Shown here: positions 19,543 through 55,412 of the stretch, one piece after another
How positions within the stretch are numbered: the stretch's first letter is position 1
Layout: every line of letters begins with the position of its first letter
From: Escherichia coli
GTDB lineage: Bacteria; Pseudomonadota; Gammaproteobacteria; Enterobacterales; Enterobacteriaceae
Length of the DNA: 64,000 nt
Assembly: GCF_003334355.1 (NCBI RefSeq)
Contig: NZ_QOWP01000001.1
Direction: 5' to 3' (one strand)
Notes under the pieces: generated by a model
Database searches by the model: none
Told to the model about the DNA's origin: nothing
Seen by the model: the letters and a program-made list of their open reading frames with translations, nothing else
Program-made: the position numbers and the translations under genes

Positions 19543-20267
19543 TCCAGCTGGTGTTGTTGCATAAACGGCTCACCGCCTAACTGATACATCTGCCGTAAAA
19601 TCCACGCCTGACGGCTATGCACGTAGCCCGATGGCGCGGAGACTTTGAAACGACGTGGATTAGGTAATACAGCTGCCAGTAATGCAGCTTCCGATCGGGT
19701 AAGTTTGCTCGCGGGTTTGTGGAAATAACGTTGTGCCGCAGCTTCGACGCCAAACACACCGTCGCCAAATTCGGCGATATTCAGGTAAACCGTCAGGATA
19801 CGCTTTTTGCTCCAGACCGTTTCTATCCCCAGCGTTAATCCAGCTTCCAGCCCTTTTCGTACCCAGCTACGCCCATCCCATAAAAAGAGATTTTTGGCTG
19901 TCTGCTGAGAAATCGTTGATGCACCGCGAATACGGTTTTCATTGCGCTCGTTGTGCGCCAGGGCTTTCTCAATGGAAGCGACATCAAAGCCCCAGTGCTC
20001 AGGAAATTTCTGATCTTCTGCGGCAATCACCGCCAGTCCCATCCATGGCGAGATTTGATCCATACTGACCCAGTCAGAATGTGCCACGTAACGAAAATTG
20101 CCATGCAGCCAGGCGCTGACCTGTCGCTCGACCATTACCGCTGAGAAGGGAACAGGCGCAACGCTAAACAACGCGATGCCCCCGCCCCAGAAAACGGCGA
20201 GGACAACCATTAACCGCAAAAGAAAACGGCGAACGAAACTAAACACCGTTAAGCGGCTTTTACTCAT
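19539..20267 (-). CDS. mtgA: Monofunctional peptidoglycan glycosyltransferase
   Basis: 242-aa ORF with N-terminal TM anchor and transglycosylase motifs ([17 protein letters not shown]). Confidence 0.93.
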
Positions 20268-20917
20268 TCAGCCAGAACCAGCACGCGGGATACCAGCTTA
20301 TCAATGCCGCTCGCCGCTTCTGCAATGTTCTGCGCCAGCATATATGCTGGGGTGGTGACAATCTTATTGTCTTCATCAACCACGATATCATCGACAGGAC
20401 AGGGCACATGCTCCGCGCCCATCTCTTCCAGCACTTCTGCGGTATCGATATCAGTACCGATGGTCAAACGCAGCGGGAAATCGAAAATTTTCGGCAGCAT
20501 CGCCGGGGCAATACACATAAAACCAAGCGGTTTTCCGGCCTGATGCATCGCTTGTGCCAGCGCCTTTAATTCACGGTCAACGGTGCATTCGCTACCAAGA
20601 CTGGCAAAATTGCTTAAATTCTTCGCCGCGCCAAACCCCCCCGGCACAATCAACGCATCCAGTTCAGCGGCATCGGCCTGGGCCAGAGGACGGATTTCAC
20701 CGCGCGTTATTCGTGCCGCTTCAATCAGCACATTGCGCGTTTCCGTCATCGCCTCGCCAGTTAAATGGTTGATAACATCAACCTGCTGCTTATCCGGTGC
20801 AAAGCAGACCGCCTGCGCACCGCTGCGTGAAATAGCTAACAACGTCAACACCGCTTCATGAATTTCAGAACCGTCATAGACGCCGCATCCGCTCAGAATT
20901 ACGCCAATTTTCTTCAT
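20264..20917 (-). CDS. elbB: DJ-1/PfpI-family glyoxalase ElbB (YhbL)
   Basis: Track ORF trimmed to [24 protein letters not shown]... (217 aa). Confidence 0.9.
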
Positions 20918-21034
20918 TGTGATCATCCTTTCGCAATTGACTGAAACACATTAATTTTTTTAATAAAAATGGTACGCATCACACATTTAACTGATTCATG
21001 TAACAAATCATTTAAGTTTTGCTATCTTAACTGC

Positions 21035-21155
21035 GTGCGGCCTGAAAAACAGTGCTGTGCCCTTGTAACTCATCATAATAATTTACGGCGCAGCCAAGTT
21101 TTCCCTGGTGTTGGCGCAGTATTCGCGCACCCCGGTCTAGCCGGGGTCATTTTTT
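21035..21155 (+). ncRNA. arcZ: ArcZ small regulatory RNA (SraH/RyhA)
   Basis: Sequence gtgcggcctgaaaaacagtgctgtgccc...ggtgttggcgcagtattcgcgcaccccggtctagccggggtcatttttt matches ArcZ as I remember it, including the 3' seed and the intrinsic terminator; it overlaps the arcB stop convergently. Confidence 0.9.
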
Positions 21156-23483
21156 AGTGGCTTTTGCCACCCACGCTTTCAGCACTTCTACGTCGTGACG
21201 CCACTCTTCTTTCATCTCTTCAATCCATTCACCGACGTTATCTTCCCAGGCCGGAAGGTCAGGAGACTGAATTTGCTGACCCAGCTGTTGCAGATGGCGT
21301 AACCCCACTGACCCCGCCGCACCTTTAATTTTATGTCCTTCCTCAACAATGCCTTTTTTATCCTGCGCCGTCAGATTCGACTCCAGCACGCTGACATAGC
21401 CCGGCATCATCTTCTCAAACACCGCTAACCCGTCGGTGATCAGCTTCGGTCCTACAAGTTCGAGATACTGTTCCAGCATGGGAATATCGAGCAATGCTTC
21501 TGATTTACTGTTCTCTTCTGTCGTCACCGTACTCTCCTCATCATCCAGGGTATCCCAGAATTTCTTGATCATCGCGGTTAGCGCCGGAACAGAAAGCGGC
21601 TTACTCAGCACATCATCCATTCCAGCATTGAGGTACTCTTGTTTGTCTTTCAGCACGTTAGCGGTTAAGGCCACCAGCGGCGGTAAATCCTCGCGCGGAT
21701 AACGTTTCGTCAGTTCACGAGAGATATCCAGCCCGGTCATATCTGGCAACTGAATATCCAGCAACACCAGGTCGTATTCGCCCGGTTTAAACATCTCCAG
21801 CGCCGCCTTGCCGGTCATGGCGACATCAACGCTGTTACCTAATTTTTCCAGCACAGAACGCGCAACAATCACGTTCAGTTCAATGTCTTCCACCAGCAGC
21901 ACATTCAGCGCCGGTAAAGGCATATCGTCTTCATCAAACGCATCATCGACCTCTTCTGCTACCGACGGTGCGTGGATCGTCAACGTAAAGGTTGAACCTT
22001 TGCCCTGTTCGCTGGTAACCGTAATATCGCCGCCCATATTTTTCGCCAGACGACGAGAAACGGCCAGACCAATACCGGTGCCGGTGGCAGGTTTACCGCC
22101 ATGACTGTCTTTCACCTGGTAATACATGGCGAAAATTTTATCCAGCTCATCCTGCGGAATGCCGATACCAGAGTCTTCCACTTCAAAATGCAGCATATCG
22201 CCTTCATCGTAGCGCACGCGCACGGTAACCTGGCCTTGCTGGGTGAATTTGACGGCGTTACTGATGAGGTTCCACAGGATCTGCCGTAAACGCGTCCCGT
22301 CGGTAATGACCTGATGCGGTAATGGCAGCGTCGGCTCCAGGTTAAAGCGCAATCCTTTTTGTTGCGCCTGCAATGCGGAGAGATTTTCCAGATCGGCAAG
22401 GAAGCTGGTGAAATCAACCGGTTGATTATCAAGCTGGACCTTGCGCCGTTCCATCTTATCCATGTCGATAATATCGTTAAAGATATTCCCCAGCGTGACG
22501 GCCGAAACATGGATGGTCTTGAGATATTTTTCCTGCTCGGCGGTGAGTTCGGTATCCAGCAGAATGCGGCTCAGACCGACGATACCGTTCAGCGGTGTAC
22601 GCAATTCGTGACTGATGGTGGAGATAAACGTCGTTTTGTCGCGGCTGGCCCGTTCAAGCGCATCCTGATACCGCTTACGCTCGGTAATGTCGCGACCAAA
22701 GCCCATCAAACCGTGACGTTTACCCACGCGGTCGTAGTACGGCACTTTACGGATTTCAAAGCAGGCTTTGCGCCCGTCCGGGTAATCCAGCCACTGTTCA
22801 TAGGTCAGTGACACATTATGACGGAACACTTTTTCATCGGTTTCAATGACTTTTGCGGCGGCTTCCGGTGAGTAAACATCAGCAGGTTTCAGGTGAATCA
22901 GTTGTTTTTCGCTTTTTCCGGTCAGCAGCTCCATCGCGCGGTTACAGCCGGAAAACTCTTTATCTTCGTTACGATAAAAAACCAGGTCGGGTGAAGCATC
23001 AAGGAAGGAACGTAAGAATGAGGATTGCTGCTCGAGCTGAATTTGTGTCTCTTCGCGCTCTTTGATTTCAATTTTCAGTTGGCCGAAGGTTTCCTGCAGT
23101 TCTGCTTCCGCTTTTTCACGAACGGCAATTTCCTGATTTAGCTGGGCAATATTATCTTTTAACTGAACGTTGAGGCTCAAATCGCGCTCGCGCATCTCCT
23201 CCAGTTTTTGCACCAGCCGTGACAGACGTTGTCGTGACTCCTCCAGTTGCTCGACGACCACCGATAGAAAGTAGACCGCCCACGGCGTAATCAGCAAACC
23301 AAAGAAGATAGAACGAATAACATCAATGCTTTCGACCTGACCATGCAGCACCATGGTTACCGCCATTTGTACCACAATGGCAAGAACGACGAGGGCCAGC
23401 GCCAGCAACATTGAGAAGCGCACCAGACCTAACTTCATCATCAGGTCAACATAATACTGCGCCAGCAGACGAATTTGCTTCAT
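21147..23483 (-). CDS. arcB: Aerobic respiration control sensor kinase ArcB
   Basis: Track ORF trimmed to MKQIRLLAQYYVDLMMKLGLVRF... (778 aa) with PAS, HisKA (SHELRTPLN), receiver and HPt domains. Confidence 0.96.
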   Translation of the reverse strand: MKQIRLLAQYYVDLMMKLGLVRFSMLLALALVVLAIVVQMAVTMVLHGQVESIDVIRSIFFGLLITPWAVYFLSVVVEQLEESRQRLSRLVQKLEEMRERDLSLNVQLKDNIAQLNQEIAVREKAEAELQETFGQLKIEIKEREETQIQLEQQSSFLRSFLDASPDLVFYRNEDKEFSGCNRAMELLTGKSEKQLIHLKPADVYSPEAAAKVIETDEKVFRHNVSLTYEQWLDYPDGRKACFEIRKVPYYDRVGKRHGLMGFGRDITERKRYQDALERASRDKTTFISTISHELRTPLNGIVGLSRILLDTELTAEQEKYLKTIHVSAVTLGNIFNDIIDMDKMERRKVQLDNQPVDFTSFLADLENLSALQAQQKGLRFNLEPTLPLPHQVITDGTRLRQILWNLISNAVKFTQQGQVTVRVRYDEGDMLHFEVEDSGIGIPQDELDKIFAMYYQVKDSHGGKPATGTGIGLAVSRRLAKNMGGDITVTSEQGKGSTFTLTIHAPSVAEEVDDAFDEDDMPLPALNVLLVEDIELNVIVARSVLEKLGNSVDVAMTGKAALEMFKPGEYDLVLLDIQLPDMTGLDISRELTKRYPREDLPPLVALTANVLKDKQEYLNAGMDDVLSKPLSVPALTAMIKKFWDTLDDEESTVTTEENSKSEALLDIPMLEQYLELVGPKLITDGLAVFEKMMPGYVSVLESNLTAQDKKGIVEEGHKIKGAAGSVGLRHLQQLGQQIQSPDLPAWEDNVGEWIEEMKEEWRHDVEVLKAWVAKATKK

Positions 23484-23578
23484 TAGGGAATTCCTTCGCG
23501 ACAACCTCCCCCAATAATACCCAATTCTGACAGTTACGTTATAAATTGTGTGAGAAATGCGGAATTCCCCTCAACGAC

Positions 23579-55185: not shown

Positions 55186-55412
55186 GGCTGCCGGATGCGG
55201 CGTGAACGCCCTATCCAGCCTACGGTTATGTTCCGGTTTGTAGGCCTGATAAGACGCACAGCGTCGCATCAGGCAACGGCTGTCGGATGCGGCGTAAACG
55301 CCTTATCCGACCTACGGTTATGTTCCGTTTGTAGGCCTGATAAGACGCACAGCGTCGCATCAGGCAACGGCTGCCGGATGCGGCGTGAACGCCCTATCCG
55401 ACCTACGGTTAT
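55186..55412. repeat. BIME: cluster of about five alternating REP (PU) units
   Basis: Repeated gccggatgcggcgtgaacgcc(c/t)tatcc and tgtaggcctgataagacgcacagcgtcgcatcaggc blocks with a roughly 120-bp super-period between yhdP and tldD. Confidence 0.85.

Follow-up and report, generated by a model that had tools for sequence, protein, structure and literature searches.

We wondered what is encoded in the spacer between elbB and arcB in a 64,000-nucleotide stretch of Escherichia coli DNA (contig NZ_QOWP01000001.1; all of it is referred to as the window), where a mechanical open reading frame list places a 62-codon frame and a preliminary description, made from the letters alone, had placed the small RNA ArcZ. 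The whole window was searched against all Rfam families using cmscan. Positions 21035-21142 of the plus strand matched the ArcZ family RF00081 (gathering score 66) with 118.7 bits and E = 1.5e-26. Model positions 1-106 of 106 are all aligned, and the hit is not truncated. The preliminary description would have been abandoned for want of a significant hit to the ArcZ covariance model; instead the full model was matched at nearly twice its gathering score. The RF00081 model ends inside the terminator and the full bounds of arcZ were taken from the K-12 annotation, which gives arcZ (b4450) as an ncRNA of 121 nt at 3350577-3350697. Alignment projects this gene exactly onto 21035-21155 (plus strand) of the window, the interval for which a comparison with K-12 arcZ had been proposed as a check. 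Only one base of 274 nt differs from K-12 in the elbB-arcB spacer, which rules out a chance match. Within ArcZ 120 of 121 nt are identical to K-12, as are all 108 nt upstream of the start site. We put the probability at about 0.97 that 21035-21155 is arcZ (alias sraH or ryhA) of the E. coli chromosome in the arrangement of the reference strain. ArcZ is thus an already known small RNA in its known place, and an ordinary feature of this DNA.

The neighbouring genes were identified using curated protein models. The elbB coding sequence lies at 20264-20917 on the minus strand, divergent from arcZ, and matches the NCBIfam model NF008747 (ElbB) with 357 bits against a cutoff of 180, in agreement with the K-12 annotation. 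On the other side, arcB occupies 21147-23483 of the minus strand; it encodes 778 amino acids when the K-12 start is used and matches the equivalog model NF008302 over its full length with 1481 bits against a cutoff of 838, again as annotated in K-12. A further upstream neighbour on the minus strand is MtgA which, like ArcB and ElbB, passes the cutoff of a curated NCBIfam equivalog. The mechanical open reading frame list lengthens two of these genes. It extends arcB by 7 codons (23484-23504, with a TTG at 23504) beyond the K-12 start at 23483, and ArcB read from the K-12 start aligns to positions 1-778 of the curated model. It also extends elbB by 3 codons (20918-20926, with an ATG at 20926) beyond the K-12 start at 20917. 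Elsewhere in the window, the minus strand carries two tandem matches to the Rfam family naRNA4 (RF02564) at 55243-55312 and 55334-55403, scoring 77.3 and 71.1 bits against a gathering score of 59.5. Matches of this family are REP/BIME-type repeated extragenic palindromes.

The locus is nearly universal in the species. Using positions 20927-21200 as query, a match was found in 5,417 of 5,426 complete E. coli genomes, and the match is 100% identical in ATCC 8739 and other E. coli. The remaining 9 genomes gave no match to the elbB-arcZ-arcB junction, in 54 genomes under 80% of the query is covered, and in some the query matches at two places. Partial, double or absent matches could reflect inserted, deleted or rearranged DNA at this junction. 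The RNA itself is marked unevenly in sequence records. K-12 has an ncRNA feature for it, ATCC 8739 (NC_010468.1) has none, and a query from within arcZ returned "none" as the annotation under the match in the listed E. coli genomes other than K-12. RefSeq automatic annotation therefore appears to omit ArcZ, at least in those records. The arcZ/arcB pair was also found on 11 PLSDB records labelled as plasmids. Among the 10 of these 11 that were listed, most are multi-megabase or chromosome-sized, for example NZ_OL790696.1 (4.8 Mb), and one is a 60-kb Klebsiella quasipneumoniae record carrying arcB (NZ_CP058863.1). Setting the 60-kb record apart, we rejected plasmid-borne arcZ as a real phenomenon because the records are mostly chromosomes or chromosomal fragments labelled as plasmids.

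How might the gene be transcribed and controlled? The putative arcZ promoter was read by eye at 21000-21028 on the plus strand. It consists of a -35-like GTAACA (21000-21005), a 17-nt spacer and an extended -10 element TGcTATCTT (21020-21028), and a gap of 6 nt separates it from the start site, the first G in GUGCGG (G21035). We make this assignment because the K-12 start site is known from the annotation and was mapped by 5'RACE (cited in PMC11331407), and because the 108 upstream nucleotides are identical. A generic sigma-70 consensus scan left the arcZ promoter uncalled, with 8 of 12 hexamer matches against a threshold of 9. When the 15-bp ArcA-box consensus GTTAATTAAATGTTA was searched with up to 3 mismatches, no match was found in the arcZ promoter. 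The window holds only two matches at this setting, at 46170-46184 (plus strand) and 47639-47653 (minus strand). Shuffled sequence gives a mean of 1.37, so the two occur at chance frequency and are probably chance matches. Likewise, the best TGTTA-N6-TGTTA match in the arcZ promoter reaches 7 of 10 positions, a score that recurs 342 times in the window and hence lies at background level. These searches are uninformative and provide no evidence against control by ArcA. ArcA binding at the arcZ promoter has been reported (PMC11331407), and the promoter in the window is identical to that of K-12.

We next turned to the architecture of the RNA and its conservation. Relatives were collected with a 20-nt pattern from the seed, for which a single genome of each species was scanned; this yielded at least 120 Enterobacterales loci. 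Genera among the matches listed include Yersinia, Photorhabdus, Xenorhabdus, Proteus, Providencia, Morganella, Pantoea and Erwinia as well as Rahnella, Salmonella, Klebsiella, Enterobacter and Citrobacter. Across the Enterobacterales loci listed, the 5' half of ArcZ diverges and carries indels, and the 3' half is essentially invariant. The seed CCCUGGUGUUGGCGCA (CCCTGGTGTTGGCGCA in the DNA; as defined in PMC11331407) lies at 21103-21118 of the plus strand, directly 3' of the processing site, and is the same in all 117 species among the matches listed. Nucleotides 67-99 of ArcZ are invariant in the 117 aligned species among these matches, save for nt 90. For 20 nt of the seed this invariance holds by construction, as the retrieval pattern covered them, but the flanks outside the pattern (nt 67-68 and 89-99) are invariant in the same species as well, again except for nt 90.

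Three helices make up the structure. A 5' stem-loop at 21054-21094 (plus strand) forms the variable half outside the seed and pairs nt 20-27 (GCUGUGCC) with nt 53-60 (GGCGCAGC), as given by the Rfam consensus structure and by covariation. Compensatory changes were seen in 6 of 7 tested pairs of this stem across the 117 species among the matches listed, and 78.5% of its cells are paired, a figure that comes from an alignment that is not structure-aware. RNAalifold did not find the 5' stem on the MAFFT alignment; a direct test of the named pairs showed that the stem is present. The RNAalifold consensus also holds a small invariant hairpin, GCGC with GCGC, at 21114-21128 of the plus strand (nt 80-83 with nt 91-94). 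All four of its pairs are unchanged in 117 of 117 sequences among the matches listed, and covariation speaks neither for nor against it. The third helix belongs to a Rho-independent terminator at 21129-21155 (plus strand), identified by a terminator scan and by covariation. Its hairpin (21129-21147) has an 8-pair stem with 6 G-C pairs and is followed by CATTTTTT, the U-tract lying at 21150-21155; no other terminator-like site occurs in 20850-21300. Two pairs of the stem switch from G-C to A-U in 24-26 of the 117 species among the matches listed. Taken over the 117 distinct sequences among the matches listed, 91.5% of the three-helix positions are paired compared to 30-46% when the partners are slid, and the covariation score is 0.284 compared to at most 0.10 in the slid controls. 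The conserved 3' seed and the terminator that had been described at this locus are thus both present.

The heptamer GGCGCAG occurs twice in ArcZ, at nt 53-59 (21087-21093) in the 3' arm of the 5' stem and at nt 79-85 (21113-21119) inside the seed. Therefore the 5' arm GCUGUGCC can pair with either copy, and in the full-length minimum free energy (MFE) fold it pairs with the copy in the seed. Masking of the seed by the 5' half is the explanation favoured in the literature for why processing is required. Our comparison does not support masking as an evolved trait: there is less pairing between seed and 5' half in the natural sequences than after dinucleotide shuffling of the 5' half (0.41 versus 0.49 over the 117 species among the matches listed), and only 30 of these 117 species exceed their own shuffled mean, a test weakened by the fact that the start sites of the other species were assumed.

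The relation to arcB was examined at the 3' end. The arcB stop codon TGA occupies 21149-21147 on the minus strand, and the G+C stem of the ArcZ terminator begins at 21130, 17 nt from it, in line with the spacing of about 17 nt noted beforehand. The ArcZ U-tract at 21150-21155 is the complement of AAA AAA, the last two arcB codons (Lys-Lys). The 9 nt at 21147-21155 therefore serve on both strands, as the arcB stop and two lysine codons on the minus strand and as the ArcZ tail on the plus strand. The convergent overlap that the preliminary description had seen is hence real, and it has the same 9 nt in K-12 (3350689-3350697, with arcB at 3350689-3353025 on the minus strand).

Because of this overlap, the codons for the C-terminal Lys-Lys of ArcB and the Hfq-binding U-tail of ArcZ are the same DNA. 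An overlap of 9-11 nt was found in 91 of 113 Enterobacterales loci among the matches listed, the exceptions being mostly Pantoea; an arcZ/arcB overlap of some 10 nt has been described as usual (PMC11331407). In all 91 species with such an overlap among the matches listed ArcB ends in Lys-Lys, and the third residue from the end differs between species (E, T, G, R, A, Q, S, D or H). The 22 listed species without the 9-11-nt overlap have unrelated ArcB C-termini. These data suggest, without proving it, that the ArcZ U-tail constrains the last two residues of ArcB.

Shared terminators are common between convergent genes. The hairpin at 21129-21147 might accordingly end transcription in both directions, in which case the arcZ and arcB RNAs would share no more than a few complementary bases and antisense effects in cis would be negligible. 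Indeed, the hairpin is a near-perfect palindrome (CCCCGG/CCGGGG) that abuts the arcB stop, with an A-tract on the side towards arcB. However, the minus strand past the hairpin reads UGCGCGAAU (TGCGCGAAT) and has no U-tract, so by sequence the hairpin is not a bidirectional terminator, and the terminator scan of 20850-21300 called no terminator on the minus strand. Moreover, arcB mRNA is reported in reviews to lower ArcZ, and ArcZ to lower arcB expression, effects that were attributed to antisense pairing (PMC11331407, PMC4152358) and that imply arcB transcripts extending into arcZ. We consider a shared terminator unlikely. Plausibly, arcB transcripts read into arcZ in antisense orientation.

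The preliminary description was borne out in its reading of the locus, but it overlooked the single base by which the window departs from K-12. Alignment places this difference, T for A, at 21099 (ArcZ nt 65). Cleavage of ArcZ in Salmonella was mapped to G-A|U+1-U+2-U+3, with U+2 and U+3 essential and U+1 dispensable (Chao et al., 2017; PMC5222698), and the maturation motif has also been given as R-N|W-U-U (PMC11331407). The corresponding RNase E motif in the window is G-U|U-U-U at 21098-21102 of the plus strand (motif as in PMC5222698 and PMC11331407). From this analogy we infer a cut between 21099 and 21100, immediately 3' of the variant base, which is thus at position -1. The predicted mature form would be the 56-nt RNA at 21100-21155 (plus strand), given its identity with K-12 and Salmonella, where a 56-nt 3' species is the active form (PMC11331407, PMC5222698).

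We wondered how common the variant base is and whether it would matter. Exact matches to a 61-nt core centred on 21099 were counted: of 5,417 E. coli genomes, 74 carry the window allele, ATCC 8739 among them, and 5,307 carry the K-12 allele. No relevant publication on natural variants of ArcZ in E. coli was found in a search of the literature. The rare base might alter maturation: the cut could, for instance, move by one base in the 5' direction (A-G|U-U-U-U), leaving an RNA of 57 nt, or the mature form could be made in a different amount. ArcZ would then function unlike that of K-12. With the variant base, four U stand in a row, so that R-N|W-U-U can be read in a second register as well, and Chao et al. 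(PMC5222698) noted that cleavage by RNase E is frequently displaced by 1 nt in either direction and that runs of U reinforce the site. In addition, the predicted accessibility around nt 68 drops from 0.98 to 0.38 between the K-12 and the window allele, and a natural point mutation in ArcZ of Dickeya solani abolishes processing (PMC11331407). Against this, the variant base is the unconstrained N of the motif, and the essential U+2 and U+3 are intact. Position -1 is the least constrained of the motif across species (A in 59, U in 33, G in 21 and C in 6 among the matches listed), and exactly GUUUU is found naturally in 13 species among these matches, including Photorhabdus, for which a short form of ArcZ has been detected (PMC11331407). 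The global MFE fold is unchanged between the alleles apart from a local register slip (-41.2 versus -42.3 kcal/mol), the three-hairpin structure has -33.2 kcal/mol in both, and the seed is the same. We regard altered maturation as quite unlikely, and the T allele at 21099 is most likely neutral. If the effect were true nonetheless, ArcZ dosage would be changed in a natural lineage of E. coli and, as a consequence, so would the set-points of RpoS, motility or mutagenesis.

This leaves the 62-codon open reading frame at 20969-21157 of the plus strand, which was listed mechanically. The frame begins with an ATG in the promoter region between the divergent elbB and arcZ, 66 nt ahead of the ArcZ start site and outside the mapped transcript; AAUAAAA precedes this ATG, and there is no Shine-Dalgarno sequence. 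The frame is unannotated in K-12 and in ATCC 8739. Neither its start nor its frame is conserved: the ATG is ACG in E. albertii and two other Escherichia lineages, in-frame stops interrupt the frame in Salmonella and Citrobacter, and among 115 species in the matches listed the nearest upstream in-frame stop is found at 32 different positions, mostly 8-23 nt before the seed. The C-terminal part of the conceptual peptide is conserved because a conserved RNA is being read in one frame. The polymorphism at 21099 would be a non-conservative Asp/Val change in this frame. A search of about 15 billion predicted proteins found the peptide of neither allele, and the 62-codon peptide matched no NCBIfam family. 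The expectation that the frame is almost certainly no protein is thus supported by five independent checks. A real small protein, which would make the locus protein-coding or dual-function, is scarcely credible even though the ATG-initiated frame runs uninterrupted in the window and in the GTDB representative of E. coli, and we conclude that the 62-codon open reading frame is not a gene.

What would ArcZ do in this strain? The regulatory steps set out here are drawn from the near-identity to K-12 and from published work on K-12 and Salmonella (PMC11331407, PMC5222698, PMC4152358). A sigma-70 promoter would fire at G21035 under aerobic conditions and in stationary phase, and would be repressed by phosphorylated ArcA at low oxygen. 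The 121-nt precursor would bind Hfq via the U-tail of its terminator, and RNase E would cut after nt 65 to leave a stable 56-nt 3' fragment whose seed CCCUGGUGUUGGCGCA would pair with many mRNAs. In the case of rpoS, pairing at -91 to -63 of the leader is expected to open an inhibitory hairpin, free the ribosome-binding site and block Rho, thereby activating rpoS translation. The repressed targets would include flhDC, mutS, tpx, sdaC and eptB. The ArcZ seed of the window is identical to that of K-12, and RNAduplex placed the best ArcZ-rpoS duplex on the K-12 leader at -88 to -52, overlapping the published site. The duplex has -23.0 kcal/mol, a value that 610 of 1,000 shuffled seeds reach as well in a calculation that ignores accessibility and Hfq. 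Since arcZ and arcB are convergent and overlap, their transcripts are cis-antisense to each other. Mutual negative regulation between ArcZ and ArcB/ArcA has been described as a redox-controlled switch on RpoS levels (PMC11331407, PMC4152358).

ArcZ of the window can be set beside known systems. Compared to K-12 ArcZ (b4450, RF00081) it has the same neighbours, the same 9-nt overlap with arcB, the same seed and the same terminator, and differs at nt 65 only. In ArcZ of Salmonella enterica the 3' half is identical, beginning with the UUU at the cleavage site and reaching as far as the terminator stem, and the convergent overlap with arcB and the position of the 5' stem are shared. The Salmonella 5' half, in contrast, has diverged by numerous substitutions and short indels, with compensation in the stem, and the loop of the terminator also differs. 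The Salmonella precursor has 118 nt, and its maturation by RNase E and Hfq was dissected in that organism (PMC5222698). RprA and DsrA are likewise Hfq-dependent activators of rpoS that act by anti-antisense opening of the leader hairpin, and RprA is also matured by RNase E into a 3' fragment (PMC5222698, PMC4152358). Unlike ArcZ, both RNAs are of unrelated sequence, lie at other loci, answer to other regulators (Rcs, low temperature) and do not belong to RF00081. Nor are they cis-antisense to a sensor kinase that controls them.

A parallel in gene arrangement is found in cis-encoded antisense small RNAs such as GadY/gadX, where the gene of a small RNA converges with a regulator gene and the overlapping 3' ends permit cis-antisense effects, as for arcZ/arcB. 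ArcZ, however, is documented to act mainly in trans, and the seed it uses for this is not part of the 9-nt coding overlap; how far ArcZ engages in antisense pairing depends on read-through of the arcB transcript.

What the locus adds to textbook knowledge is limited to a rare allele, probably neutral, at the processing site, and to the DNA shared between the tail of a small RNA and the C-terminus of ArcB across most of the order. The value of recognising ArcZ is only practical, as it keeps the spurious 62-codon frame from being called as a gene and flags a small RNA that goes unmarked in ATCC 8739 and in the other listed records apart from K-12. ArcZ is a central Hfq-dependent regulator in enterobacteria that connects the redox state of ArcB/ArcA to RpoS, motility, mismatch repair and hundreds of transcripts.
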